Assembly: GCA_973895155.1 (NCBI GenBank)
Contig: OZ316896.1
Location: 21,519,643 to 21,583,642, forward strand
Direction of reading: 5' to 3'
Source: Marsupella aquatica
Taxonomy: Eukaryota; Plantae; Marchantiophyta
DNA: 64,000 nucleotides
The translations under genes and the position numbers were made by a program. A model generated the notes under the pieces. It worked only from the letters and a program-made list of their open reading frames with translations. It made no database searches and was not told the origin of the DNA. Within the stretch, counting starts at the first letter, position 1; each line of letters opens with the position of its first letter. Of the stretch, positions 5,001 to 62,500 are shown piece by piece.

Positions 5001-6201
5001 AAACATTTATTTCAATTATTATAATATGGAATCCGGCCCAAACTCTCCAAGTGTGCTTACCAACTTGAAAGGAAGGAACAGAATCTAGCCGCCAAATGCA
5101 TTGGAGAATTGTTTTTGTCACTATTCGATCGTGTGAAGTGGAGTGCCCAAACAGGGCCTATTATCTTGGAGGAGGAGCTATTTACCATAGGCTACTAGGG
5201 AGTAAGTGGTGTGCGTGCAGATTATAAACATTATAATACACAATCCCTACCTTTTCCCTCATGGTTTGTGCACTTTTGGATGTAACTCATTTTGCTTGTT
5301 GGATTCAGATCTGCATTTTCCTAGTCATGAGATCTAGTATCATATACAATTTCAATGTATAAATTAAAGTATTATGGTACATGGATATAACTGTATCTAT
5401 TTGCTTCACCTTATTGTGTAAGAAGCCTCAACTCTAGTTATGCTACTAACACTAATTGTGTGGCACAGGGGAATTCGAATACCTCTCTAACTAGTCTAAA
5501 ACTTTGGTTTTTAGCAATAATTGCCAATGATTCAAGAAACTAAAGTGGGGATGGAGCTCCACATTGTTTATGAAGCCAAGATGGATTTGGCAAAGCTTGG
5601 ATGGACTTGCTCCCAAGATTAAATTTGAGTCAATCATATAACTTTGTTTACATTTTTGACTGAAATGTGACCTGTAAATGGTCTTCTTATTGTTTGTAGA
5701 CTGTTTCAGTTATGTTACCCAACCGGTCTCCTCGGTAGCATGGCTATTTGACGACCTTAAACATGAAAGACGTGAGGACATCATGCCATTACTAAGGAAC
5801 ACTGGTTTTCAGTTAACCCATATAAAAATTTCCAATTGTAGAGTGAAATCATGATTCACCATATTTGACCATCTCTGTGTTCATTGAAAATGGAGTGAAT
5901 GATCTAAAAAAAGAGTCAAACTTTGTCACACAATGTATTGGACATGAGAGACCATGCTGGAAATTTGTCAGCTTAAATTAGGATCCAGAAGTCCTTCAAA
6001 TAAATCAAACTATCCGCCAAATTCAAAGGTAAGGTTTGTGTGTCAAAATAGTTATCCTTTGTTGAATGTAATGTGCCATTTTTATGGAAAAGAAACCCCT
6101 AGATACTTCTCTACTTGCATTTTCTTTAAAGAGGTAAATTAAATTCAAAAGTGTAACATTTCAATGCATGCTAAAATAAATGAAAAACCTCCTCATATGA
6201 C

Positions 6202-7108
6202 AAAGCTGATTTTTTCCTCGCTACTCGGTAACCAACACTCCCAAAGCTGACAGGGCCCAATGTGATAAACTAAATCTATGTTGCTTTACATGCTATAACA
6301 AAGCTGATTTTTGCCTCCCTATTCGGTAACCAACACTCCCGAAGCTGATAGGGCCCAATGTGATCAACTAGATCTATGTTGCTTTACATGCTATAACAAA
6401 GCTGATTTTTGCCTCCCTATTCGGTAACCAACACTCCCGAAGCTGACAGGGCCCAATGTGATCAACTAGATCTATGTTGCTCTATACATGCTATAACAAA
6501 GCTGATTTTCCCCTCCCTATTCGGTAACCAACACTCCCGAAGCTGATAGACCCCAATGTGATAAACTAAATCTATGTTGCTGTACATGTTATAACAAAGC
6601 TGATTTTTGCCTCCCTATTCGGTAACCAACACTCCCGAAGCTGACAGGGCCCAATGAGATCAACTAGATCTATGTTGCTCTATACATGCTATAACAAAGC
6701 TGATTTTCCCCTCCCTATTCGGTAACCAACACTCCCGAAGCTGATAGACCCCAATGTGATAAACTAAATCTATGTTGCTCTACATGTTGTAACAAAGCTG
6801 ATTTTTGCCTCCCTATTCGGTAACCAACACTTCCGAAGCTGACAGGGCCCAATGTGATCAACTAGATCTATGTTGCTTTACATGCTATAACAAAGCTGAT
6901 TTTTGCCTCCCTATTCGGTAACCAACACTCGCGAAGCTGACAGGGCCCAATGTGATCAACTAGATCTATGTTGCTCTATACATGCTATAACAAAGCTGAT
7001 TTTCCCCTCCCTATTCGGTAACCAACACTCCCGAAGCTGACAGACCCCAATGTGATAAACTAAATCTATGTTGCTCTACATGTTATAACAAAGCTGATTT
7101 TTGCCTCC
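6202..7108. repeat. 98-100-bp tandem repeat array, left part (9 full units plus a truncated one)
   Basis: Unit aaagctgatttttgcctccctattcggtaaccaacactcccgaagctgacagggcccaatgtgatcaactagatctatgttgctttacatgctataac starts at 6202, 6300, 6398, 6498, 6596, 6696, 6794, 6892, 6992 and 7090; the last unit is cut by the transposon. Confidence 0.97.
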
Positions 7109-7290
7109 ATCACTATATTCATTAAAAGTGGAATTATAAAGAAGATTTGGAAATTTGGGCATTTAAAAACACACTTTTAGGCATAAGAATTGTAAATTTG
7201 AAGGATGAAAAATGAAAATTTAAGCATCATGAATTATAAATTTGGGGCAAAAAAATAGACATTTGGGCAAAGAAAATATTAATTTGGATA
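7109..7290 (+). repeat. Left TIR and AT-rich subterminal region with degenerate ~20-bp periodic repeats
   Basis: 25-bp TIR followed by recurring aaattt(g/a)...aaaa motifs at roughly 20-bp spacing. Confidence 0.7.
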
Positions 7291-7693
7291 ATATTAAAAA
7301 ACATTTGGGTGATAAAAAGTGTTCATTTGGTTGAAAATAGATAGAACGTGTGTAATAACACATAAGCTTGGATAGCATCTATACTCAAAACATCTAGCTT
7401 GGATAGGATCATTATCTAAGCAACAATGAAATGCTAGACAAGTTAAATATCTTATATTCAAACTAGGATGACATCCAAGTAACTTAGAACTGCCATCATT
7501 TTCTAGAAATATATGTACTAAGACAAAAATAACAATTTTTATCAAAAAGTCCATTCAATAACTAAGAAAGATCATAGAGTATTTGATTGCAAGCCTTGTT
7601 CTCTCACTTACTTTAGACAAATGCATGGAAATTAACTTGACCCTCCTACCTACAAGTCATTACATAGTGGACACTTGTGACCACTCTATCACT

Positions 7694-10600
7694 CTACTCA
7701 TCAATACCTTCCATGTAAGTTTTGAGAGTTTTCAAAACATTCTTGGGAATTGTCAAACCTCTATCCATAATATTTTGTTCTTTGGCACCTGACTTAAACC
7801 CATACATTGCAGAATTTGCAAATTGCCAACTTTGAGTGATAGTGTTAAACCCAGGATCTAGCTCCCAAGTCTTAGTGGTCTGAAAGCAACGTTCGTATCG
7901 AACATCATCCTTTGCATCATGCTTACCATGTTTAGGCCTCCACCATTGCACTTGGAACATAGGAGCACACCGCTTAGGAATGCTACTTAGGTGAATGCTC
8001 TTAGAAAACCTTGAAGAAGACCCTTCACTAAATTGCAAATCTAGTGAAGAAACCTCATGGTTTGGATCCACACCACCCAAAGCTCGAACTAACCAGAAAC
8101 GCCCTTTGCCATTTTTTTGCTCCCATTCATCCTCTGGACGTAAAAACACAAAGTGACCCTCTTGAATATCTTGTAGGGGAATCCAACGTGCAAGTTCTCG
8201 CTCTTCTTGTGCACCAACGAAGGGTGCAGCTTGACCTTCCATCTCTTCCATGTACTCATTTTGAAGGTCCATCATCTCTGAATTTTGAGTAGGTTCACTT
8301 GAAGGTTGAGAGGTCCCCAAAATCACCTTGTAACCTGTGCCATGGTTAGTCTTTGGCCAGAAATCAGTTGTCAATGACAATTGTCTTTCTCCCTCCCCTT
8401 CTATTGTAATTGCCTCAGAGAGTGCCATAACAAGCCTCTCCCAATATTTCACCAAAGGAAATCTCTCGCAGTATGCTGCAGAGGTCTCATCCTTGCAACT
8501 TTTCCTCAAGAAATCAATGTAACGATTAAGGAATGGGATGATTTCCTCGACTTTCTTTTGTACCTCCCCCGATATAGGTTTTGCAAATGGTTGGCCCTCC
8601 GGTAAAATGAGCGTGTTTGTGATGAGATCAGTTCTCCAAATTGACCTCCCTGTTGCTGGAAGCCAAGGTTGTTTGACATGTGCTTTATATTGATACACTG
8701 GCACATTATCCCTCATGGAGAATAGAAATGCCACTGGTTTTGAGTGACCTTCAATCTCTTTCACTTGGAAAGCCTTCAAATAGTGCTTGTAAGATGCAAC
8801 CTCCTGAATCAATCGTGGTACGGGATGGATGCTTTCACACTCCCAAACCTCAGCCATCAACGCAAGGAGGGTAGCAACCTCTTTGTACCTGACCTGTTTG
8901 GATACTCGAGAAAATAGTGCATCCACATCCTCATGGGTGTGGCCAACCATGAGGAATGACATTTGCATAGTTTCAAACACCCCCTGCTAACAAGCTCGCT
9001 GCAAAATGCCATCACATATTGATTTTTATTATATTTTCCTGAATTGTTCATCTGCAGTGTTAGGTGCCTTGGTAAGGGCTTGAAAGAGCTTGTAGTCTCA
9101 GGATCAACTCTAGAACCAGCATCTGTTGTGCTGGTTTTTTGGCTCTCCTGACCGTCATCAAGGCCTTGAAACTTGAGAATTGAAACATTTTTGGGTTCCA
9201 AGTAACCCGCTTGAAATGCTTCAAAGTCCAAAAGAGACTGAAATATTGGCCTAGTTGCATTCCAATTGAAAGCTTCAAGCATGTCTCCCGTTTTGTCTCC
9301 AGTGTAATCCTCCAAATCTCGAAGGCATTTGGCCAAAGATGTCACAGTGAAGTCTGCATCTCCAGGCCAAAGGCCAGTCAAACTAAAGTGTGCATACACT
9401 CCTGGATCCCTTCCATGGGTTAACATCCCAGTAAGGGCAATGGCCAGAGGTTGACCACTACCAGAGAGAGATTTTGGAGTGGGGACCAATCTGGGGATCC
9501 AAGTCTTGGCTTGGTCCATCTTATCATGAATAATGCAAAGATAGTTTTGAGGATCCTTCTTTGCAAGAACCCTATGAGCATAGTAAACATATCTCCTTGA
9601 CATTTGTTCACGAAGATGTCGTGCTCTTTTCTCTTCAATCTCTGCACGCTCTTTTTTTCTCTTCTCCCGCATCAATTGATCTTTGAACTCAGTGCAAAAT
9701 GTGCACTTGGCAAATGCACTGCCCTTGTGAAAGTCAAAATTATCAAAAGAATTTTTCCAGATGTTGTACATGGTAACTTCAGTAACCTTAGCATAGCCGT
9801 CCAATTCCATCTTTGCAAATACCTCTTGAAAAATCTCCTTCTTAGTGAAACATGATGGGAGTCGATATTCGACAGTATCGGTGCCGTTGGACCCACCATA
9901 GGGAAGATGTGGCATTGGTTCTCCATTTTGGATTAAAATGGACTCCAACAATGCACGAGCATGCAAGGTGCTTGATCGTGTCTTATGTTGCCCTTGATTT
10001 CCATGGAAACCAATTGTGCACCCAGCTTCGTACTGATTTTTGCAATCATCACACTATTCATTAAAAGTGTATTTTATTTTGTTCACTTTTAGGCCTCTAA
10101 AGATTCACTTTTTGATCTCTAAATGTACACTTTTTAAACCCAAAAGGTACACTAAGGTACAATACTCTACACCTAACTGATCAATTGTAAACTTGAGGGG
10201 GCAAAAATGATCTTGACTATAAGGAGTCTCATCCTAGTTCATTTACAAAGGATGAACATGGTGGTATATTTGATGGCCATCAACTTAATTTCTTGCCCAA
10301 TTGTACACTTTTTGAGGGCCAAATGTATACTTTCTATTGCCCAAGTGTTCATAAATTGAATAATAATTCACTTTTAATGAATAGATTGATAATCATAATA
10401 CTTTGCCGTACTAAACCCATGCATTTTTATGAACGCATCCTTACAAACCACACGTCCCTTTAGAACAAAAAATCCTTTTCTCTTGACTTGGTCTTCTCTA
10501 CACCCAAAAAGATTGAAGATATGACTTGTTTTGTTGTCACTTGACATTCCATGAAATTCCCTCCTTATTGCCTCCAAGTCCTCTCAAGTTGGCATGTTCA

Positions 10601-11778
10601 AGCAACACTTTAACCTGCAACAACCTTCTCTTTGGATGGAATCAATGGACTCCTCGGTGATTTTCAAAAGTGCCCTTGATTGCAAATGTTTTTTTTTTCT
10701 CCTCCAGATCCACTTTGGTCCTTCTAATGAAATTATAAGGTCTTTTTGGAGGTTTCCCATCACCATCCAAATCCGGGTCGCTCTCATTTCGACCCGATTC
10801 TATCCACACATGTGAACCTTTCTCAAGGATATCCCCGAGAAACATTTGAGATGAAATCAACAACAAAGATTTGATTTCCCACCTCACCAAACCTGGAGTA
10901 CCAGCACAGATATTTGGAAATAATGCGGGATCGTTGATATTCACAACAGCTACACCCACATGCTCTGGACCAAGAAGTTCATCATCAACAGCACCTGCTT
11001 CAAAAGGAACTGTGATAACCCCTATCGCAACCTTACGACAACGAGAAACATCATACAAGTCAACTTCCTCTGCCATCCAGTTGGAACGCATTGTAAAATC
11101 TTTCAATGGAAGATCCTTAAACAGGTTTGCACCCGGGTTTGCACCAACAAACATGCCAGAACCTCGAATAGAGCCTTTTCTTGAAACATCAGCAACATCC
11201 CACATTACCCAAGTCTGCATTGCCTCTTGCACTGTGTCAGCTCCAGGATGTGGATACGGTAGTTTTCTATTTCCCTGAACAACCTCTGATATTTGTATAC
11301 TGACACGGCCAACACCGAGTCGTTCACTATGACAAGTGTCCATTGGATTGGTATTGAAGACAACTCCTTTTGATACAAGTTCATCTAAAATGAACATCTC
11401 AACCTCCTCTCCTTCAGCAAGGTTGCCTCCTTTACCACCAACATCCATTTCGGAACATCCTTCATCCCCGTCCACTGGAGTAGGAACACCATCCACAGCG
11501 GTTCTTTTCGGCAATGTTGAAGACCTCAAATATGCCAAGGAAGAATCCCAGATCACACACGAGTCAACTGCATCACCTAGGCTCGATGATGTTTTGGATG
11601 GAAATGGTAGTGGACAAGATGTTTCAAGACACCTCTCGATAAGGACCCCAATTCGATTTTTCCCAAGACAAATATTGTGTATAGTGTCTTTGGGATCAAC
11701 CTTTTGGATGGTCCCAATTGCCACTTCAAAACCATCAATTATCAATGAAACTTCATCCCCTCGCATAAATTTACTCAT
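7694..11778 (-). pseudogene. Sola-like DDD transposase with three N-terminal En/Spm TNP1-like repeats (~1245 aa reconstructed)
   Basis: ORFs 10642-11778, 10584-10787, 10374-10577, 8857-9966 and 7694-8980 join into one protein. Motifs: CCRLKCC, VCKDAFIKMHGFS, HGNQG, CTFC, IIHDKMDQ, LQMNNSGKYNKN (expected LQMDNxxxxNKN), SFLMVGHTHEDVDALFS. Lesions: frameshift in the T-run 10689-10698, TGA at 10584-10586, MITE at 10048-10390, frameshift in the C-run 8980-8984, apparent catalytic D to N change. Confidence 0.85.
10048..10390. mobile_element. 343-bp non-autonomous element (MITE) of the same TIR family, nested in the transposase gene
   Basis: TIRs ATCACACTATTCATTAAAAGTG and ATCAATCTATTCATTAAAAGTG (20/22). 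TSD AATC at 10044-10047 and 10391-10394. Removal restores the frame AKYYD-CKNQYEAGCTIGFHGNQG...LHARALL. Subterminal tacacttttt-type repeats are present. Confidence 0.93.
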
Positions 11779-11956
11779 GGTAGCGAAAGGATCTCTGCAT
11801 CCAAAAACATTTAAAAATTGTTCAGCTGATGTGCATACTGATAAGCACTACTCTAGATATTACAATATTAGATCTAAACATTTGAATTCTATTTAAAGGA
11901 AAAAAATATTTGGGAGTTTATGTGTATTGGCTTTACACAACAGGATTCTAAGGTCA

Positions 11957-12387
11957 GGGACGCTCTTGGAGCGAGGCAAGGTTGCGACGCTCTAGGGGCG
12001 AGGCGATTGAGGGACGCTCTAGGGGCGAGGCGATGGAGGGTCGCTCTAGGGGTGAGGCAATGGAGGGTCGCTCTAGGGGCGAGGAGATGGAGGGTCGCTC
12101 TAGAGGCGAGGCGATGGAGGGACGCTCTAGGGGCAAGGTGAATGAGGGTCGCTCTAGGGGCGAGGCGATGGAGAGACACTCTAGGGGCAAGGTGAATGAG
12201 GGCCACTCTAGGGGCTAGGCGATGGAGGGTCGCTCTAGGGGCGAGGCGGTTGTGGGACGCTCTGATGGCGAGAAAATGGAGAGCGGATGCCCTTGGAGAA
12301 AAGAAAGGGCAGGATGCTCCTGATGAAAGGTAAGTGTGTGACGCTCTTGGAGCGAGGCAAGGGCATGACGCTCTTGGAGCGAGGCAA
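11957..12387. repeat. 27-bp minisatellite built on an imperfect palindrome, upstream of the transposase ATG (probable 5' intron)
   Basis: Unit gggtcgctctaggggcgaggcgatgga, about 11-12 copies at 11957-12270 plus two more near 12340 and 12367. A minus-strand acceptor tgcag lies just upstream of ATG 11778. Confidence 0.92.
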
Positions 12388-13109
12388 CGGGAGAGCAAGA
12401 AAAGATGAGCACAATCCTGGAGAAGCAAGAATTGTGAAGGAAAAGAGAAAATATGGAAATGAATAAATCAGGGGAATGATTAAGCTGAATTAGACCATTG
12501 AAGTGTGTAGACGTGTGGGTAGACGAGTGTGTCGTTAGGAACCCTACATTATCTAGGGCTTAGTTAGGTCCATATATTAAGATAAAGCTAGGGCCAAATA
12601 TTTGGTGGATATCATAGAGAAGAAATTAAGAGAATGGTAGATGAAGTAATACCTCTCTTAAGGACTATAGAAGACGTGTCGCCAACCAAGGACACCAAAA
12701 CTAATGCAATATACTTGAAACAGGACTTTCCTTGCACGAACTCTTGTAACCATAAATGTCCAAGTCAGTCGAATCAGTCACCGAACAGAAGCAAGATAGA
12801 CAAGGGCCGAAGGGCGAGACCGAGAGTGAGCAATGACCAGAAACGCACGCGCCATACAAAAGAGAGAAATGATTGGAACTGTAGAGCTTTATACCATTTG
12901 TGAGCAAGCTTTAGCCAAGTTTGTCCTGAAGGGGTTCACAACATCGAGAGGCCGAAAGTCTGATTACTCTGATCGGCATTCTGTGGACACCCGTACGACC
13001 GTGCATCATTTTTCAAAATCTATGGATACCCGTACAGCTAGGTCATTATGAGGGTTGCGAGTTCACAGGCGCGTGGAAGGGAGCAAGTGGCTGGGTTGCG
13101 TAAGGTCGG

Positions 13110-13160
13110 GTACGATCGGCCGTGGCGTACGATCGGCCGTGGCGTAGGATCGGCCGTGGC
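13110..13160. repeat. 17-bp tandem repeat (x3) in the divergent promoter region of the transposon
   Basis: gtacgatcggccgtggc repeated three times, one with a variant base. Confidence 0.9.
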
Positions 13161-13447
13161 AGTGAGGGTATAGGAAGGCAAAAGGCAAAGACATTACCTC
13201 ATTTGCCTCATTGTCTTCTTGCATCCATCTCCTCCTTCATTGTCTTCTTGCCTGGCTGCCCTGGTTTCCCTCCTCCCTCTTGCCTCGCTCATAGTAGATT
13301 TTCTTGCCTCGCTCTGTTGATTTTTCCTTGCTCATAGTAGATTTGTTTCCTTGCTCTGTAGCCTCGCTCCGTGGTGTGGTCTAGCTATAGGTGTTCTTGT
13401 ATACTAGGCTGCCACGTGTCATCTAAACGTTTGTGAGGCATTTTTCA

Positions 13448-16400
13448 ATGGCTACTTCCTCTAGTTCTGATGATTCTACTAGCACTTCTAGTTCTGGGTA
13501 GTCCCTAAACTTTGATTCTAGTAAAATCTTTGAGTATGATTCTCAAGACACTTTACTAAAGATGTCGGTGGAATCCACTTTGGCCGCCTCAAGGGGATTT
13601 CATATCACAGTTCCACGTAAGTATGATTCAACAATTGATGCAAGTTAGTCTTTGAAGGGTCACTCTTAGAGCGACCTTATCTTGCCTAAGATCTGTCGTT
13701 GTTATTGGTTGGATGTTGATTTAAGTTTTCCTAGGGTCGCTCCAGGAGCGACCCAACTTTGTTGTTGGTTGGACGTTGATTTAAGTTTTCCTAGGGTCGC
13801 TCCACGAGCGACCCAACTTTGTTGTTGGTTGGACCTTGATTTAAGTTTTCCTAGGGTCGCTCTTGGAGCGACCCAACTTATTTGTCGGTTGGACCTTGAT
13901 TTAAGTTTTCCTAGGGTCGCTCCAGGAGCGACCCAAATTTGTTGTTGGTTGGACCTTGATTTAAGTTTTCCTAGGGTCGCTCTAGGGGCGAGGCAACACA
14001 GAAGATCTCTTGCTTTAATGTTTGTCGTTTCAATTTGTTTTTCTAGGAGAACAACTTGGATCCCTAGAGTTAAATATTATGGCCGAGGATGTCAAGGACT
14101 TTATTTTCCCTGGACAAGATAAGGCAGGATTTTTGTGGGCACTTGAAGTAGGGATCATGGAGAATGACTTGTCGATGATTTGTATCAAGGCAATCACTGC
14201 TGAGACAATGAACGACAAGAAGATAGTTGCGTTGGGCCCTGTGGTCCTTGTAAATTGCAGTGATAACCGCAATGTTACAATCATTATTGAATCCAGAGAA
14301 AGATCTCAGTGGATGAGACTTTACTTGCCAATCAAGATGTACTCGTCAATTATCAACGTGGAGTGGATAGCACGCTCGGAGGCTAGTATTTGTTCAATGG
14401 GATTTCTTCCAGATGGGTTCACTGCAGAGGATCTTCTTGAGAGGCATGGAAGATTCAAATTGAGTGGGGTTGATGTTGTCTTTGGATTCCTCTCTGTGAA
14501 GCGGTACATGCATGATCATCCGGACCTTATAGATCTTCCTAACACATGGGTTGTCCAGAGGATGATTGAAACAGCACGCTTTTCATATGAGCAAGCAATT
14601 GATAAGAGTTTTATTTTCTCTGATGAGTTTGACGAAGATGCTTGCATGAAGTGGATTTCAACTCAAAAGAAGAAGGAAGAAAAGCATCGAGGTAAGGCGA
14701 AGATGAAGATGAAGGCCAAAGAAATGACGTCGGCTGAAACACAGAAGAAGAGAAAACAAAGAGAGCCAAGGAGTGAAGGAAGTACTAGAGGAAAAAAGGC
14801 GGCGTTGAAGAAGAAAGATAAGGACTCCGACAAGAAGCCCAAGAAGAAGGCCAAGATTGGAAAATCAAAGCCCGTGTCAGCGTCAAAAGCAAGGTTGGTC
14901 TTGGATCCGGAGGATGATACATGCCCAACAGATGCACCAGAGGAACGAGATGTATTGGAGGGGCAGAAAGCTTTGCGGAACATCGAGCAATACTACACTT
15001 TTGGAATCAGGGAGGTTTTTGAAATCCCGGTTAAAAGTATTCTTCCGCCTACTGCAGTTTTTGTGTATCGGATGTTCAACCAGGCTCATGCCTTAGAGAT
15101 AGCAAAATCAATGATGAAAAACCCTGGCCAGGAACCACATGTTGCAGATTTGATTCCATTTCTAGAGCGCACTAAGCAGTTGTTACATTTTGACAATACC
15201 GCATGCGATCGGAAGCAATTTTTGTTTGGTGTTAAGAAGCAAGAGATACAATTTCTTGCAATCAGTGGGCAACATTCTGCAAAGGCTGCACAATGGATTC
15301 AAGGGTGGGCAGACAAGGATGCCAAGCTAACTGATCTTGCTAGCAAACTCCAATATCTGAAAGCGAGGATCTTATCAGACCTCACTCCAAGGGCAATTTT
15401 GGTCGAGCACTCGAGCCTTTCAAATGCAGTAAATCAGACCATGCAGTTTAAGTCTTGTTTTCTAGAGACAGTTGTTCATGCGAGAAGGCAATTTGATGAA
15501 TGTGGGAAACCACCGCGTCCAGGAATTGGAACAAACCAAAGTACAGACAACCAGAGATACCAGGTAAACATTTTCATTAGTTGGAACTGTAGTTTAATTT
15601 TGCCTCGCTCTTAGAGCGACCCAAATGAAATTGAATGATGAATACAATGATTGCCCCAACCATTTTCATATGGCTTTGTCATTTTCTTCGCCTCGCTCTA
15701 GGGGCGAGGCAGAGAAGTTGAAGTTTCTAAGTTTAAACATCTAACATGTTTTTTGGTGGATGAATGTAAATGCAGGATTGGTTTGCCCTCGCAAAGATAA
15801 CAATGGGAAAGTCGAGCTTGAAAGCCATTTTTTGGTTGCTCTTTGCTGAGGATAAGCTTTTCCATTTGTGGCAAACTGTTTGTTGGGATTGGTTGGCAGG
15901 GAAGCTCCCTGGCGGGGCAGGAGAGTATGGTGGGCCGTGGCCACTAAAGCTGGTCACGCCAACTCTTTTTAGATGTTTTGAAGGGGAGATCAGTTCTAAG
16001 GATATCATTGATATATTGACCGCGGTTTATGAGAAGAAAGCACTTCTCAAGAAAGATGCCTCCAACAAGATGGATCTGGTGTCAATGCCAAATATGGCTC
16101 ATACCATCAAGGTAATGACTAAATTGAAGCAAGTCATTGTTGAGTACTTTGTTGAGAAGCACAAGGAGAAGTTTCCCGGGGGGACATCGTGGGCTTCGGT
16201 GGTCAACATCATGCCGGCCTTGGGATCTCAACTTGAGCTGACAAAATTGCGAAGAGCAGCTGGGGAGGTCTACCTTAGCAGTTTATTAAGGAAGAACATT
16301 GTGAAAGAGGCTTTCCCTCAAAGTCTAATGGTGAGATTAGACGGGTTGTACTACAAACAATTTGGTGGAGTTGGGCGCACACGAACAGAGCCTTTCTTGA

Positions 16401-19400
16401 CGTTCTTCAGTGAGAATCTAATGAAGACAACCACGCCAGACTTATTGGAAGAGGCGACGCCAATGTGTCCACTTGCAATTGTTGATTTTAGTAGGGCACG
16501 ACAACATGAATGGACAGATTCGGAAATTTTTGTATTGCTCCAATATATTGTGGAGTTGCCAAGGAATACAACCATTGTAGTTGTCATGACTACTCATCCA
16601 GGGCCACTTCCAGCCAACATCTTAAGTGCCCTAAGGAAATTAGGACATGAAAAGCATTTGGCCATCCATGTTGAATACGGGAGTTATGATCGGGAAGATC
16701 GCCCAAATCCGCAGGGCTTAATTTTTACAGGAGCGATTGAGCAGGTCATTTTTGCTGGAATTACAGGTGAAGACAATTTTGATTGGAATCAATTGTTTAA
16801 GCCAGAGTTCAATTCAAAATTTAGTTTTCACCCCGATGTTGACTGTGATTTCAATATTGAAGTGAAGGCTGACAAGCAAGAGAAAAGCAAGGGAAAAGAG
16901 AATGAGACAGAGGAGCAGTCTCCCGCATTTGATATGGCAGATTTATTGCGGCAAGCTCCAATGTTTGAGATGGTCGAAAGTCGAGGAGGATTTGTCAATC
17001 CGCATGCCAAGCCCTGACACATGCTCAAAAATATTATTGAATGTTTTTCCGGTGAGGGGGAGACTGTCCTCGATTTTTTTTCAGGAGGGCAGGTTTTGAA
17101 GGTGGCCTTGTTGGCATACCGAGATTGTTTTGTCTATTCAGACACTTTGCAAGAACACCATTTCACCCAAGCATATGCAAGGGTTTTGTGCAACAGGATT
17201 CCCTCCCTTATGAAAGAGCGAATGGGAGTACATGGTCCTAGGAGAGCTCATCTAAGTGTTCTTTGCGGGCCTATGGACAACCCCCAACCGGGCCCTCAGC
17301 GAGTTGACCTTGAGGATGGTGAGTTGCAGCATGATGATGGAGGTTCAAGTCCTATGGTAGAGGAGGATTTTGGCGGAAATTGGGATGCTCGAGCAACAGA
17401 AATGGTTGGCATTACTACCTACGGTGTTGAAGGGCTACCTCAACTCGACATAGTGATGTCGGGTCGCCCTGAGAGCGACCCTCCATCAAATCCTCTCAAC
17501 CCTGAAGTATCAAAATTGCATCCCGAGAGACCGCAGGTATCGTGCACATTGGATGCAGGTTGGCAGAATATTGGGGCCACTACACCCACCACGGACCTAC
17601 AAGTTGGTATTGCAGAAGCGATTGAAGACAACCTTCCACTTGGAGAGACAACAAATGTTGAAGCTGAAGAGGCAGGTGCTTCAACTTGTTCCGAGTCTCC
17701 TCAATTATGTTCGTCAGGGAATAAATTGGTCTTCACAAGGATGTCAAGCGGAAGCCCCATAATATTACGCTTGTCTCAAAAGTCTGGATCTGAGATAGGT
17801 AGAACAAGATATATGAAGACAGTCCGTCATGCAACTCATTTCATTTGGAGAAATGGACCTAAAGTTGGATTGAAAGAAACGTTGGAGGATGCGCCTAAGT
17901 TAATGGTCAAACCTCATTACATAATAGACAAATTGAGATTGAGTCCAGTGTTTGCGCCGGCAACGTTGGTGGAGCAGCTTCCTGTTGGCGTCAATTTTGA
18001 TATCCAAAGTGATCTAGGTGATAAAATGATAGATGAATATGGGTCATTTAGTAGTGGAGGTTAATATTATGGTTTAGTTCTTCTATTTTTCACAATAATC
18101 TAAAATATTATGTTTGGAAATCATATATGGACAGACCAAAGTTTTGTCATAGCATCTCTTCCATCGAAGGATATTATTGGTCTACCTTCAGCAAGCGGTA
18201 CCCTGGTCCAAGACAAAGCATTTGAGCAAGGTACTTCTACATTGATATATCAAAATGCTTTGACATTCAAAAATGATATGTTTGTTTTCCCCATTAGGTC
18301 GGGTCGATCCAGGTTCGACCCTAAGTTCTTCTTTTATATCTTTTAGATATAATTTTGATTCATTTGGATCTTTGCAGATTTCACTCCTAAATTGCACTCT
18401 GATATAAGAAGAAAACTCTTGATTTTGGACCTGAACAAAATTTGTTGGGATTGCGTCAAAACAAAAAGCTCGGGACCGTTAAGATCTACAACAACTGTGC
18501 GGGGTGTGCATTGGGGGAGACGGGGTGGATTCAATTTCATGTACGTGGAAAGGCCAGGGTTGCACCAATTTTTGGAGGTGGCTTTCAAAGGTTTTGATGT
18601 CGCATTGTGGACTTGTGCGGGGAGGCCAAGAACTAATGAAATGATGAATTTGATTTTCAAAGAAGAGGAGCGGAGGCAATTTAAATTTGTTTTCACACAA
18701 GAAGATGCTTTTGATACTGGCATAAAAAGACCGGACGTAGCAGATGGGAAAGGAAATATTATGTTGAAGGATTTGCTTGTGGTGTGGAGTCGTTTTGGAG
18801 ACAAGTATGATGATACAAACACTCTACTTATTGATGACTCTCCAGTGAAGGCTTTTGCAAATCCACAGTATAGTGGTTTGTTCCCAACTCCCTTCTCACA
18901 CGTTGCTGAGAGTGACACTTTTCTACCAGAGATACTTTGGCCATTCCTTAGAAAATTGTGGAAGGCTTATGACATCCGACAATATATATCTGTCAACAAT
19001 CCACTTTGGTCATTTGTTAATATAAATGATGACCGTGAAAGTAATGCTGCAATCACTTTCCCATAAGTGGGGAAGTAAGATTTGGCGTTCCAAGATTGAG
19101 TATACCATCTTGGATGTCACTGGAGATGAGATATGTTGGGAAGTGAGGGATATGGTACAATCCTACCCTACATTTGAGAACCTGACCGAAGATGATATGA
19201 AAGATGTGGTCAACAACTGTTTGGGCGAGTCTTATGCAGGTCCCTTCAGAGAAAATCCTCGCCGATTTGTCTGGGAAGTTCTAAAGACTAGGGATCTCAC
19301 CTCTAAGTTTAAAAACCGTTATCCCAAAGACACTTGCACTCGTGACAGACTATATGACCCAAATGGAGAGCGACTCACTTGTTCAAATCAGTCATGTAGA

Positions 19401-19442
19401 CATATTCATGGAGGCATAGAATTTGAAATTTTAGATGATTAA
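13448..19442 (+). pseudogene. Transposon cargo gene, 5 exons (13448-13616, 14047-15563, 15776-18059, 18135-18230, 18378-19442), ~1700 aa: Lys-rich region, ParB/Srx-like, N4/N6 DNA methyltransferase-like and FCP1/NIF phosphatase-like domains
   Basis: All four GT-AG introns join in phase (1,0,1,1). ParB-like motifs: EIPVKSI..VYRMFN..AKSMMKNPG..FLAISGQHSAKAA. MTase-like motifs: NPHAKP*HMLKNIIECFSGEGETVLDFFSGG..ALLAYRDC. NIF-like motifs: LLILDLN, ERPGLHQFL, VALWTCA, KDL, NTLLIDDSP. Lesions: TAG at 13499-13501, TGA at 17015-17017, +1 frameshift at ~19026-19063. Confidence 0.78.
13705..13995. repeat. 60-bp tandem repeat (~5 copies) in intron 1 of the cargo gene, each copy carrying the 21-bp palindrome
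   Basis: Unit ttggttggaccttgatttaagttttcctaGGGTCGCTCcagGAGCGACCCaactttgttg with an exact 60-bp period. Confidence 0.95.
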
Positions 19443-19729
19443 TCATTATGTTTGTGTACATTGTAGGACACAAGATTGGAGTCATGCAATCATTTTTCTA
19501 TTTCACAGGTCATAGAACTACTTTGGACTTTACACTAGCTTGACCATTGGAGTAGGATCGACATTATGGCTAGCCAACCTTGAATATATGTTATGATAAA
19601 TGAGATGATTAATCTCACTTTGAATTTAATCATGAGTTTTTACCAAATGATACATGTTTGTCACTTATCTATTTAATTTCAAATACAATTAATATTAATA
19701 ATTTCTGTATTATGATTAATTGATTAAAA

Positions 19730-19896
19730 TCAAATTTGGAGTGCAAAAGTGTAATTTTAAACCAAAAAGAGTGTATATTTAGTCTTGAAAAATTGTTTAT
19801 TTGGAGCAAAATTAATGGACTTTTTAGAGACAAGAATGTAAATTTGAGGATCACAATCTGGACTTTTAAATTTCCAGTTTTAATGAATACTGTGAT
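19730..19896 (-). repeat. Right subterminal region with degenerate ~20-bp periodic repeats and the right TIR
   Basis: Recurring aaaa(g/t)tgt..ttt motifs; TIR at 19872-19896. Confidence 0.7.
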
Positions 19897-20567
19897 CTCC
19901 CTATTGGGTAACCAACACTTCCGAAGCTGACAGGGCCCAATGTGATCAACTAGATCTATGTTGCTTTACATGCTATAACAAAGCTGATTTTTGCCTCCCT
20001 ATTCGGTAACCAACACTCGCGAAGCTGACAGGGCCCAATGTGATCAACTAGATCTATGTTGCTCTATACATGCTATAACAAAGCTGATTTTCCCCTCCCT
20101 ATTCGGTAACCAACACTCCCGAAGCTGACAGACCCCAATGTGATAAACTAAATCTATGTTGCTCTACATGTTATAACAAACAAGCTGATTTTTGCCTCCC
20201 TATTCGGTAACCAACACTCCCGAAGCTGACAGGGCCCAATGTGATCAACTAGATCTATGTTGCTCTACATGCTATAATAAAGCTGATTTTTGCCTCCCTA
20301 TTTGGTAACCAACACTCCCGAAGCTTACAGGGCCCAATGTGATAAACCAGATCTATGTTGCTCTACATGCTATAACAAAGTTGATTTTTGCCTCTCTATT
20401 CGGTAACCAAGACTCCCGAAGCTGACAGGGCCCAATGTGATCAACTAGATCTATGTTGCTCTACATGCTATAACAAAGCTGATTTTTGCCTCCCTATTTG
20501 GTAACCAACACTCCCGAAGCTTACAGGGCCCAATGCGATAAACTAGATCTATGTTGCTCTACATGCT
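19897..20567. repeat. 98-100-bp tandem repeat array, right part (~7 units)
   Basis: Same unit as 6202-7108, resuming at ctccctatt immediately after the right TIR. Confidence 0.97.
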
Positions 20568-31000: not shown

Positions 31001-34000
31001 ATTCTAGCTAACAGGGTCTGTGTCTAGGTGTGAAGCTTGCTTACGGGTGACAGAAAATCTAGCCAAAAGCTGCAAATACTATTTAGAGAGGTAGAATCTA
31101 GTCTGCCACATTTTTTTTGGTTGGGTGAGCAAGTGGAATCTACTGTAGTGATCCTGCCTTTTCTTTTATTTGTAAGCAGAAGTCCCCCATTTCTGAAAAA
31201 AGATTGTTTATTAAGGTGTTTGATTGCAAACGAAAGTTATTTAAGAAGTGTGAATGATGACTAAGTTCTGGGTAGTAAAAAAATTCCAGGCTAGCAAACA
31301 CCCAGAGGACTCCTGGTCAATAGCATGGCAGAAGGAGTCACATTAACAGGCTCCATGTCCTTGGGGCCCCTTCTCCCAATTCCAGATGAGCATTCTTTGA
31401 AAACTCATTTTATTGCTTACTTCAGGTCCTGCTTTTAATGTTGCCCATTATCACATATTGCTGGATGCACACAGAAAGTTAAAACATAAGGGTGTATGTG
31501 GTACTCTGAATGCTACCTAAGCCCGTACCTAAGGAGTGCAGATCAACACAAGTGCAGTGTTTACTCGAGACTAGTCATACCAAAAACCATAGTCCAGTGG
31601 TAGCAAATCTTCATTGCCACAAATGAAGCCCAGAGTTCAAGCTGCATAGCTAAATCAACTCTGGCACAAACCAAGGCACAAACCGTCATCCAAAAGTGGG
31701 ATTCACCAAAGTTCTTTGCACATAATATACTTGACACTTGAGAAAATTGGAATTAAGTTTAAAAGTCTGGATGGATTGAGGGGTTTGCCCATTCCCATGG
31801 ACTGTGACATACGCTCCTTCACATTACAATTAAAATTCACACTGTCAGGCTGTCTTTGGAAGTAAGTTTCACTTTTGAGAAGGAAGCCATGAGTAGTGTT
31901 TCTAGGTGTCCCCACCAACTGTGATGATGGTTTTAATAGACTTATTTACTTATTTGGACAACTATTTAAGTTCAATTTTTTTAGCATGTTCTCTTATGTA
32001 CAACCTATTATCAGGCAAAGTTTTAGATTTTTCTTAAATGATTGTTTCATTGCCAATGAGTGTAAAAATGGTCAGTTCGTTCACTTTTGTGAAGGATGCC
32101 CGGGAGGACACCCTGAGTAGTTGGTACATGAGTCGTGACTTGCCACCGCGTAGCCAATGGAAACCATCTGTGAACGGTCAGGAGCCTATTATTGAGCTAC
32201 ACTTCAGTCCAAATGGTAACGAGTACTATCCAAGCCTTTTGGATGGTGTGAATCAGTCCATCCCAGCTTTGGAAATGGGGGTTTCATAGCAAACCCCCTC
32301 AGTCCTTCCAAGATCACTTTCTTATATTAAATCTATCACCTAAAAGAAGATGAGTTCAATTAGACAACATTCAAGGGATTAGTATAAATTCAATGAGGGC
32401 ACATTCAACGCGTTTACTTTACTGAGTCACGATAAACTGGAGCTTTATCTTTACCACAATGTAAGTTTATACTCATACAGGCACAATCGAATCAAATCTC
32501 CCATTCAGAGCTCTTCTCGGGTTGGAGACTAGCTGACTCAGGAACAGCTTACTTTATAAGGTTTTTCAAAATTTTGTGTTACCTTCAGTGAAGAAGTAGA
32601 TACTAAGAATATTCTTTATCTAATTGTTTTGGATTACTTTCAGATCCTCAGATCTCCCTAGATAGAAGGATGACTGTTAGATACTGACTTACTAGTGGGG
32701 TCTTTGGCTAGGTCTGTGGCTAGGTGAGAAATTGTCTAACGGAACACAGAAATTCAATTTAATTTCTTCCAAAACTGGCAAGCAGTTTTTCGAGAGATTC
32801 TAGCAAAGGTTTGCCAAAAGGCTAAGACTTTTTAGAAAGGTGGAATCTAGCCAATTCTCCTGACTACAAAAATGCCTGCTCATGATCTCATCTTTGTTCG
32901 CTATCACTCCATTTCTTAAGGCAGGCCAGTCCCATCTTTCGGAGTAAAACTAGAAGAGATCGTCACCACGTAGGGGAATGTCATTATAATTACGTAGTCT
33001 GTGAGTGAGGTTTGGAAAGTAGGGCACCACGTAGGGAAATGTCATCATATTCATGTACAGGAGTCATCTCGTTCAGACTTGGATTCCTTCATTGCTTGAG
33101 TAAGAACCTTGTTAGTTGTGTGGACACTAACGCTTTTGAATTATCTGCAGTATGTAGGTCCAATATGTGTTTACATTCGGGGATGCCCATTGAATGCACG
33201 AAGTGTCCTCCCACATGTAACTCGACCATAAGCCAATGATGATTGAAATCTATTTCTCGGGCTATGATGAGCTTTCTACAACAAGTCTGGATGCTCACTT
33301 GTTAGATTGATGCCCCAGTAAACCTACGCTCCTACAGTAAAGCTCATCATATGGGTGTGCATAGTTCTGCTAGAGGAACTTCAAGCAAATTGCTACAAGT
33401 TACTAACGAAATACTGAATGGGCACCTAAGTTATATTCTGGATACCCACATGCTAGGATGGGTGTTATAATAGAAATGTGATTCTATTAAACCAGCATAT
33501 GGTAAAGCACAAAATGGCACATGCTTATGGATCTCCGGGACCTCTAAAATACTAACTTCATTGGGTCCACACTCCACAAACACTCAACCATACCCTTCAC
33601 ACATCTGCATGCATATTTTCTGGGAGGACTTAGGAGTACCTTCACCCGAGTCAAAAACCGAGACAACAGAACCCAAGAATTCCTTTTTCAGTCCGTTTCT
33701 TTTTGTTAAGGGTGCTGTGAATTCAATTAAGGAATGGTAAGGGATATTTGTGCTTTGATAACTCCAAATATGAACATTCCATTGGTAAAACACTTCTAAC
33801 CTTACCAGCTAATGAGCTCCCAGGAATTCAATCCTATCCGGACCATTGAATTTTTTAGTGGCAAAGATTTGCCAAATTCTACCTGATGAATAATTTTCGC
33901 TCTTTTTGCTTCAAATTTGGCCGGTCTTTGTCTTAGGCTAGTCAATTTGCACCTAGTCATAAATCCCATAGACTGGAATTTGATCGGCATTAATAGCTAT

Positions 34001-59519: not shown

Positions 59520-62500
59520 GGTACTTGTAAATAAGTTTGGGCAAAAATAATTAATTACAATATTTTTGCAAGTAATTTGACATTCCTGATCAAAGGGATG
59601 GGAAAATAAGAGGCTTTTTGGGACTGTATAAATGGACTACGACCAGGGTTGCTTTCAGTGGCTAAAATTCACTACATTTCACCTCTCAAAGAGCAATGGT
59701 CTCTTTTGGCTAAAATTACCTACAACAGATTTTCTGTGTTCCATTAGGGAGTCTCAAAGCTGACAATTTGATGGACCTTAACTCCCTAGTTGCAGGTTGT
59801 GGACACAAAAAGTTACAGACTATGAAATTCATACCATAAGCTTTTTGCCATAAGGATTGGTTAATGCCAACCATCAGTCACTGTAGAGGTTGGTGACAGC
59901 AAAAGCAAAAAAAACTTTTACATAACATTGTGAAAAAGTTATGATCATTCCTATAAGGTTGAATGTCATCATCCATAATTTTGGAGCTTTAAGACTCCCC
60001 ATTAGGCAGTTTTTCATCTACCCACAGACCCAGCAACCGTAATCTAATGATCATCCTCAAATGTAGGGAGATTTGATGGTCAAACGTTAATCTAAAAAAA
60101 TTAGATAAAGAACATTTATAACATTTCTCCTTCACACAAGGTGACATTAGCGAAACAAAAGCCCGGATGGACTGAGATGTTGTCCCTGCCAATCCCCATG
60201 GACTGCTTAAAGTCACTTTTACACCAAAAAGAAAAAGGAACCGGTAACAATTCCAGTTGACAACTTTGACCACCTTGGAGAGAAAGTTGTCAAGAGGTCA
60301 TGGTGATCCTGAGTAATGACATGACGACTTGATGTTTTTCAGGTTCAAGGTCATCAAGCCATCAACTTACCAAGGAAAAGGGTTGAGTAATGTAATTGAA
60401 ACCGGATGCAAACAGTAAAGGGACCGTTTACAGGTCACATAGTCATAGTGTAAACAGTATTATCTGAGCTAGTTTAGATGTTCTGAGCAAGTCCATCCAA
60501 GTTTTTCCAGTCCATCTGAGCTTCATAGACAAAGTGAAGCTCCATCTGGGCTTTAGTTTGGACAGTAGCCATGCAGGCCGAAAGAAAAAAACCTTAAAAA
60601 TTAGGCTAAGTACCATCACATCTCCCTCAAAATGTCGAGAGCTTTTGGGCTTTGACCATCTTTTCCTCCGCCCCCCTGTAAAAGTGTAGAGCCGTCAGAT
60701 CTTGGGACCAGGTCCAAGAGCATTAGGGCCATCTTGCATGTGAGGGTCCCCAAATTATCAACCCTTTAAGTGATCAGGTGGCACATGCTTACTCTTCGAG
60801 CCTTTCCTGCCTCACCCTCCTCATGTGCCAGTCCTCACGGCAGCAATTCATTTTTTTCAAGGGCAAGGGCCGGAAACTTTACGGCTCTTCACCGTCCTGA
60901 CCTTTCAAATTCATAAACAAAAAAAATACAGTGCTAACAACAAAGGGGTTGAAGCGACAAAGGAGGAAACCCACTGAGTGGGAGCATTGCACGTAATTAT
61001 TGCCACGGAGAGTTGTGTTTTGATTTGCTCATACACTGTTTCCCATCTTTTGTGGGCAAGTAAGGGCCGCTTTTTAAAGGACTCTTGCACATGCAAGACA
61101 GCCCTTAGTTTGGCCCAAAGAGTCCCCACTTTTTCCAGGTTGCACTTTTTGCCGGGCATTTTGAAATAAAGTATGAAGTTGGTGACATTAAACAAATCTG
61201 CCCTTGGCTCCCTGATATAATTGTATTCGCCTGAAGTTGCAGGTTGATGATGTCAAGGTTCCATGGCACCTGCTTTGGACGAACACTATACACGAGTGGG
61301 TTTTTTTCTGGCATGAAAACAACATCCAATATAATTATTTCAAATTCCTGCAAGAGTTTTCTTTCTGTATATTTCTGAACTTAATGATAGTGAACGCCCA
61401 CCAATGCAAGAGCATGTTAAGATTTATCTTCTACTTGTGGAAAATGAAGCCTGGATACACAGCTAGGTTTGTCAAAAAGCTCCCAAGTATTTTGCAACTC
61501 AGATGGACTGCATTTTACTCAAATTGTCACAAGGAATATTCCTAATTACTCCATCCCAATTGTTTGTTTTCTGTCTAGGGTCCATGGGACCGTCCTTTTC
61601 TGGTCTTGGTAAAGAAAATAAACTCTAAGGTCTCAAGAAAGGACAAACATAATCAAAAGTAGAAGGAAAGATTTGGAGTGAAAAGAGATTAACGGGACTA
61701 AAGTGCATCAACTCATGTTATCAAGACAGTAACTAGTAGCTATGTATGTAGTCTGTGAGGTCCCGTTTACAAGGCATTGTGGGTTAATATGGCCCGTAAT
61801 GTTCTGGTAACACAACCTTTATACACTTAAAGGCTGATTGATGAGTTTTAATTACGAACCCCCATGAGAGGTCTCTTCCAAATTCCCTGGCACGAGGATG
61901 CACCACATCAGCGAGGATGGTGACAAACAGGACAGATCAGGTTTTTAGCAAAACAAAAAGGTCTTTGTCGTGTTTGTGGTCATATTCGTGGAAACTACGG
62001 GGATGATAAGCTAATAATTATTAAGTTTTCTTAAAATTTAAAGCGAATCTAATTCTTTAAACTCAAATTTTAATAATTGTTATTAATTAATTTTCAATTA
62101 ACTTATCATCTTGGTCAGTTTGGGCAGGCTACGAGGAGCTCGAGTACTTAAGGCAATTTTAGATTAAAAGGGGTATGGATGGACATGACGGTGCCAGGAA
62201 AACAAATTTTTATTGAAGGGCTATGATTGGTTTACACCTTTAATGAGTTAGTAAAGGGAAGTTTCCTTGAAGGTAGTGCATTGATATGGTCATTGACCAT
62301 TCATTAAAAAGGTGCAACCTTGTATTATAGCTTTTGATACCCAAGAAAAACATTATTTATTAAACTACGAGCCATATGCCAGTGTTTTGCACTGTGCAAG
62401 GAGGGCAGGCCCATAGGGATTGGCCGGGGGCATAACGGGGCAGTGGGAAGCAAATACGTGATAGGGGTGTACATTTTTCTCATCAATGGTGAGCAAAAAC

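Follow-up and report, generated by a model that had tools for sequence, protein, structure and literature searches.

The locus described here raises the question of whether a plant DNA transposon carries a bacterial-type DNA methyltransferase, and whether such a protein still writes a mark. The window is a stretch of 64,000 nucleotides from the liverwort Marsupella aquatica (GenBank assembly GCA_973895155.1, contig OZ316896.1, positions 21,519,643 to 21,583,642 of the forward strand), and all positions below refer to it. A sequence-only reading had placed a beta-class N4/N6 methyltransferase-like domain inside a transposon, hidden by one in-frame stop, and had interpreted it either as a transposon-borne writer or as a catalytically dead derivative.

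The two open reading frames concerned (15770-17017, 415 aa, and 17018-18064) do lie in one frame with only the TGA at 17015-17017 (plus strand) between them, and the peptide quoted in that reading matches the sequence exactly. Other copies were compared as contigs from four sequencing runs, possibly made from one or more individuals other than that of the window, and contig depth was not taken as copy number. All contigs covering 17015 (10/10, from 4/4 runs) have CGA instead of TGA, so the stop that hides the domain is a lesion of the window copy; the CGA to TGA change sits in a CpG context, and the residue at this position varies among homologues. Stop-codon read-through or recoding of the TGA was ruled out because other copies carry CGA, and two separate genes for the 415-aa and 347-aa frames were rejected too. 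Since the runs are perhaps from another individual, the TGA may also be a single-base assembly error, and recoding is unneeded. Of 24 differences between the window copy and near-identical contigs in the two main exons, 19 alter the protein and 5 do not, as expected under neutral decay of one copy; the 24 belong to a set of 40 (out of 306), of which 16 were set aside, 12 because they came from divergent contigs and 4 because they fell outside the two main exons. The observed/expected CpG ratio is 0.34 in the transposase (7697-10045), 0.56 in the accessory gene that bears the domain and 0.60 in the region 21000-64000. The earlier coordinates required correction: reading begins from the splice acceptor at 15776, the ATG at 15770 not being the start; the domain occupies about 16376-17212 in place of 16440..17160; and the gene is much longer.

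With the TGA entered as X, the read-through protein matched PF01555 (N6_N4_Mtase) over residues 402-452 (E 3.9e-5; 24.1 bits, short of the cut-off of 26.7), and of the halves of the split frame taken singly, one had no match and the other reached E 0.013. PF01555 was also matched by 11/11 members of the family alignment A1, and the family profile matched M.RsrI with E 2.5e-8. An AlphaFold2 model of exon residues 1-490, based on a 53-row alignment, reached pLDDT 87.8 and pTM 0.81; it contains a permuted Rossmann methyltransferase fold, with residues 201-479 superposing on beta-class methyltransferases. A Foldseek search with the model, a check that the first reading had suggested, found CcrM with E 1.9e-7. 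In VIA-align, ranks 1-11 were beta-class DNA methyltransferases (Z 17.3-14.2, rmsd 3.1-4.0, 184-228 aligned; CcrM Z 17.3), MT-A70 proteins followed, and the best non-methyltransferase had Z 5.2. Motif IV lies upstream of motifs X-I-II according to hhalign, which is the beta order that had been claimed. On profile matches and the predicted structure, the read-through protein is homologous to beta-class amino-methyltransferases, and the fold and motif comparison delimits a domain at 16376..17212 (plus strand) that is probably catalytically inactive. Mean identity within the family is 56% in motifs X-I-II, 43% in IV-VIII and 21-22% in the linker and loop, a pattern of conservation indicating that the domain is still under constraint, strongest on the SAM-binding side. 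Tblastn against phages and plasmids gave weak matches to the motif X-I part only (best E 8e-3 and 2e-3), and since these matches were picked by likeness, a donor cannot be named from them. A search of the ESM Atlas with homologue P0048 returned scores of at most 0.86 and PF01555 clusters, which we regard as a lead only.

The active-site motifs were mapped by hhalign and secondary structure. The hhalign partners were eight phage and plasmid beta-class methyltransferases, with DPP[YF] in 8/8, and 20 of the 53 rows of alignment A2 passed the length filter. In the alignment (probability 96.8), LAIVDFSR stands opposite DMILTDPPY, and RDCFVYS opposite RKFIGIE; the Asp of LAIVDFSR is at the end of strand E233-237 in the AlphaFold2 model. 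Both observations confirm that LAIVDFSR occupies the motif IV position, where DFSR (16484..16495, plus strand) replaces DPPY/SPPY. Residues were counted over 156 homologues, with 53 rows covering motif IV and 64 covering motif II, and the counts are not independent, since fragments and related copies make up a good part of the rows. The motif IV Asp is found in 49/53 homologues, Pro at +1 or +2 in 0/53, and the residue at +3 is aromatic in 1/53 and Arg or His in 43/53; the family form is D-[FL]-x-[RH] and not (D/N/S)PP(Y/F/W). Inspection beyond the window copy thus extended the loss of PPY to the whole family, and [DNS]PP[YFW] was present in 0 of the 170 proteins collected, including the best 150 of 241 profile matches. 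The SAM-ribose acid of motif II was found in 0/64 rows at the aligned site and in 25/64 one residue later, and the motif III region is variable. Motif I, DFFSGG (17072..17089, plus strand), aligns with FxGxG with a one-residue gap and is kept in about 59/65 sequences per position (59-60/65 at the majority of positions); FSGG may be a shortened FxGxG, as proposed, and this short glycine loop is strongly conserved in the family. The motif X Lys is retained in 65/66 and a Glu in the region after motif I in 58/65. Three homologues (P0088, P0117 and P0148, including the Ceratopteris protein) form a diverged branch in which the region before motif I is shortened and motif X is apparently missing.

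For N4CMT and CcrM, the available text of the structural report describes a target base gripped by the motif IV Ser or Asp, the carbonyl of the first Pro and the Tyr, and a ribose bound by the motif II Asp (PMC10406627), and the activity of N4CMT is reported to be abolished by the change from SPPY to APPA (PMC8885841, as far as available). Because the prolines occur in 0/53 homologues covering motif IV, the dead derivative is favoured over the writer. On the motif evidence the domain probably does not carry out methyl transfer, and it is most likely a pseudo-methyltransferase. An active non-canonical amino-methyltransferase marking its own element seems unlikely to us; given the Asp in motif IV, its mark would more likely be 6mA than 4mC. 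The conserved Asp, the motif X Lys and DFFSGG would also be needed by such an enzyme and speak against the preferred reading. The Glu kept after motif I points the same way, the first Pro gives a main-chain carbonyl in the solved structures (PMC10406627, available text) that another residue could supply, and the Arg or His at +3 could stack on the base. However, a writer would have to work with no motif IV proline in any of the 53 rows, an aromatic residue at +3 in one of them, no aligned motif II acid and a variable motif III region.

The domain belongs to a multidomain protein encoded on the plus strand, in which the order after splicing is PH-like, ParB/Srx, helical, methyltransferase-like and, probably, NIF phosphatase. 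The upstream ParB-like exon had been overlooked in the sequence-only reading, together with the palindrome arrays and a published ParB and methyltransferase gene on a giant Sola1 element. A putative Ser-rich first exon (13448..13616), with GT/AG sites and matching phase 1, has an in-frame TAG at codon 18 in the window copy. The next exon (14047..15563) encodes a weak PH-like match (about 14079-14528; Z at most 5.6), a Lys-rich linker that is disordered in the model and a predicted ParB/Srx fold (about 14976-15509). A 212-nt phase-0 GT-AG intron (15564..15775) with two palindromes (15605 and 15693) connects the open reading frame 14019-15614 to the split methyltransferase frames; homologues P0003, P0012, P0032 and P0169 are continuous across the junction, and P0169 has both the ParB and the methyltransferase domain in one uninterrupted 1009-aa open reading frame. 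A conserved helical region matching no known fold (15776..16375) precedes the methyltransferase-like domain, and a variable acidic linker with a palindrome at 17464 follows it, leading to a conserved C-terminal domain that ends in DEYGSF (17213..18064; possible phase-1 donor at 18060).

The ParB region had no significant Pfam or PDB sequence match, and its structural match is moderate (Z <8, E >0.001). The top 29 rows listed by Foldseek were members of the ParB/Noc/Srx superfamily (best E 3.5e-3), as were ranks 1-6 in VIA (Z 7.7-5.8; best rmsd 3.1, 97 aligned), so by these consistent top ranks at moderate scores a ParB N-terminal fold is present in the model. The arginine patch GxxR of ParB proteins serves CTP binding. 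In the window protein this superfamily signature reads ISGQHS, with GQHS in 12/14 sequences listed and Arg at that site in none. The NIF/FCP1-like HAD phosphatase exon (18378..19442; PF03031, E 3.4e-16) is interrupted in the window copy by an 8-nt deletion at 19054, which splits off the open reading frame 19026-19442; an insertion in other copies rejoins it, and its end then holds a CCCH-like motif. NIF phosphatases usually have DxD at the catalytic motif, and this one has DLN. The NIF domain comes after the methyltransferase part in three homologues (P0051, P0107 and P0118). Phase-matched splice sites suggest the first-exon and NIF joins, and none of the proposed intron joints was found among the contigs of the four runs.

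The location inside a plant DNA transposon was borne out by terminal repeats, a target site duplication and a transposase on the opposite strand. The element (7109..19896) is a cut-and-paste, Sola1-like transposon of 12.8 kb; it belongs to a multicopy family, of which it is a decayed member. Its left terminal inverted repeat begins with ATCAC (7109..7140, plus strand) and is 84% complementary over 32 nt to the right one (19865..19896, minus strand), and both are flanked by the 4-bp duplication CTCC (7105..7108 and 19897..19900, plus strand). Contigs start exactly at 7109 in 3/4 runs, which is what copies with a wide variety of flanks would produce. The insertion target was a 98-bp tandem array, about 16 units in all, which stops at 7108 (left part 6196..7108) and resumes in register at 19897 (right part 19897..20567). 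The duplication and the tandem register mark these arrays as the target, and their interpretation as element ends was ruled out. No Rfam match was found in the window, this array included.

The catalytic part of a DUF7869 transposase (7697..10045; PF25273, E 2.6e-13 and 9e-22) lies on the minus strand, opposite to the accessory gene; a frameshift interrupts it near 8980, and at 9048 it has N instead of D. A probable N-terminal part follows at 10393..11847 (minus strand), without a Pfam match and with a 1-bp slip in poly-T at 10689. Other copies have Asp at 9048 and are free of the frameshifts near 8980 and 10689. Within the latter part, the minus-strand open reading frame 10645-11847 seemingly holds three similar beta-rich units. 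The transposase gene is interrupted by a nested non-autonomous element of 343 bp (10048..10390) with the same end type and a 4-bp duplication AATC, and contigs of 4/4 runs show a skip of 347 bp there. Dozens of contigs per run cover the nested element, which is therefore a high-copy family. The label Sola1-like is used because of the 4-bp duplication, the parallel with Sola1-1_Ec32 and the transposase motifs DNxxxxNKN and GHT, which we take to be Sola1-like, the transposase itself being matched to DUF7869 only. A 4-bp duplication is described for Sola1-1_Ec32 (PMC12477816) and for Sola2 (PMC3627910), and the Sola2 sequences, in the part of that paper available, look different from the window transposase. 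Contigs 85-90% identical over 7030-11900 represent related subfamilies with a common transposase; summed depth is higher there than over the accessory gene, and some related elements may lack the accessory cargo. Pfam matched nothing in 20 other open reading frames of the window. Three 17-bp repeats (GTACGATCGGCCGTGGC type) lie at 13105-13160, between the two divergent genes, and inverted dispersed matches of 73-84% (5588-5802 with 60303-60509; 32608-32682 with 60042-60116) are probably fragments of another repeat family.

What the accessory protein might recognise is suggested by a 15-bp palindrome, TCGCYC-N3-GRGCGA, a pattern taken from the very repeats that contain it and counted in the window copy alone. 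It occurs 19 times at no more than one mismatch, always between 11960 and 17478 and thus inside the element, and 0 times in the 51 kb of the window outside it (shuffle mean 0.07); at two mismatches there are 22 palindromes against 2.85 by chance. Two tandem arrays hold or adjoin 16 of the 19. A 27-bp array with further palindromes (11956..12390) accounts for 10 copies at no more than one mismatch, and the stretch with a 60-bp array in the putative first intron (13660..13998) holds 6. Being found in the 27-bp array, the 60-bp array, the second intron and one exon, the palindrome recurs in unrelated sequence contexts, and we consider it a candidate binding site of the accessory protein.

Our best explanation, to which we give about an even chance, is that the ParB and pseudo-methyltransferase gene encodes an accessory protein that binds the palindromes of its own element and keeps the element expressed and mobile. 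The protein would dimerise and load at the TCGCYC-N3-GRGCGA arrays, which lie near the divergent promoter region as well as in introns of its own gene, and would coat the CG-containing sites, with the dead methyltransferase fold serving as a DNA- or SAM-binding scaffold. By analogy with the VANDAL anti-silencing proteins, the element could thereby stay transcribable and mobile in a host that silences by 5mC, and the linked NIF phosphatase may act on the transcription machinery. Palindrome binding could instead pair or organise copies or aid the transposase, with no role in silencing. Such a structural transposition helper would agree with the ParB fold, the internal palindromes and a gene order, NIF domain included, that is conserved in Riccia gene models, but it is at the promoter region and in the introns, not at the termini, that the palindromes are concentrated, and GxxR is replaced by GQHS in 12 of the 14 sequences listed; we think it improbable. 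A neutral, decaying captured passenger might be supposed from the 19/24 protein-changing differences, the frameshifts and the nested insertion of the window copy, yet these lesions are confined to that copy and domain-specific conservation is kept from Calypogeia to Riccia and Ceratopteris, which makes a passenger very hard to credit. The suggestion that such elements were a route to plant 4mC enzymes is scarcely credible, because MpDN4MT1, in spite of sharing structural class and plant lineage, has TSPPY and groups with prokaryotic N4 enzymes in the available part of the preprint describing it, and is without extra domains, whereas ours is a multidomain family with Asp in that place and the canonical motif in none of the 170 proteins (best 150 of 241 profile matches included). 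We found no link to MpDN4MT1 and no support for transposons as the source of Marchantia 4mC.

The family extends beyond Marsupella. A protein search gave ten homologues at 30-56% identity; when 1.84 billion representatives were searched with a profile, 241 proteins scored E ≤0.001, and the best 150 of these were examined. From 30 proteins looked up and 20 search rows, those with a species name belong to Calypogeia fissa, Riccia sorocarpa and, with one protein, Ceratopteris richardii; among the named relatives Calypogeia is closest (48%). A search for a longer protein gave 0 among 3746 candidates, which is weak evidence; in viral contigs, 35 pattern matches for the accessory protein and 5 for the transposase included no relative of either, and metagenome contigs contained one locus of 1.8 kb out of 101 pattern matches. 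A transposon accessory gene with ParB and methyltransferase domains is already known from Ectocarpus Sola1-1. The literature searched, which was not exhaustive, held no report of a ParB-methyltransferase transposon family in land plants, nor did it list a NIF partner, a defined palindrome or a loss of motif IV throughout such a family.

These results extend the ParB-methylase genes of transposons, proposed in algae to mark their own element, to liverworts and a fern. Since the catalytic motif is lost family-wide and the fold is kept, the motif data suggest that selection has acted on binding and not on writing. The 15-bp palindrome is a concrete candidate target, and other copies of this multicopy family are free of the lesions of the window copy; together they allow a direct test for a second kind of anti-silencing system in plants, besides VANDAL. 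More tentatively, and with appreciable doubt, seed-free land plants may harbour an old lineage of giant Sola-like transposons with a self-recognition system derived from a prokaryotic ParB-methylase, in which a protein would, as a pseudo-enzyme, shield a parS-like palindrome array from 5mC silencing by the host or write 6mA or 4mC on that array with an active site lacking PPY.

Among known systems, Sola1-1_Ec32 of Ectocarpus is alike in being a giant element with terminal inverted repeats and a 4-bp duplication, and in encoding one 1104-aa protein with both ParB-like and N4/N6 methyltransferase domains, opposite in strand to the transposase; its authors propose that this protein binds and modifies its own element (PMC12477816, available text). 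It differs in coming from a brown alga and in its length of 21.5 kb, 282-bp repeats and termini AACCG (PMC12477816, same text), whereas the window element comes from a land plant, measures 12.8 kb with repeats of about 32 bp, has lost motif IV and adds PH-like and NIF domains; the likeness, as far as the published description goes, is one of layout. The Plavaka elements of Bostrychia, with the accessory genes PAG2 and PAG3, are likewise described as giant DNA transposons with PF01555 methylase and ParB-like cargo and with tandem inverted-repeat arrays adjoining the ParB gene, but with an EnSpm-type transposase and with methyltransferase-SET and ParB-2OG oxygenase fusions in separate genes (bioRxiv 10.1101/2025.02.11.637652, available part).

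The bacterial beta-class enzymes CcrM, M.RsrI, M.BceJIV, M1.MboII and M.PvuII share the fold (Z 15-17), the motif order, motif X and, apparently, motif I with our family, which at 8-17% identity differs from them in a shortened glycine loop and the lack of (D/S)PPY and of an aligned motif II acid. MpDN4MT1a/b of Marchantia and the bdelloid N4CMT also have a eukaryotic beta-class amino-methyltransferase fold (8s9n, Z 14.6). In the available descriptions they are active host genes with SPPY, stand-alone or fused to a chromodomain, and not transposon cargo, and the (T)SPPY of such enzymes was not found in our family. METTL14 and the methyltransferase domain of DIRS1 are described as amino-methyltransferase folds kept with disrupted active sites, that of DIRS1 being transposon-borne; they belong to other, RNA-related methyltransferase clades, and DIRS1 is a retrotransposon (PMC4738411, available text). 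Finally, the VANDAL anti-silencing proteins are, in the source available, transposon accessory proteins that act on their own sequence (bioRxiv 10.1101/2025.02.11.637652). They belong to MULE elements of eudicots, and we claim no homology with them; they provide the functional model for how the accessory protein of this liverwort element could act.
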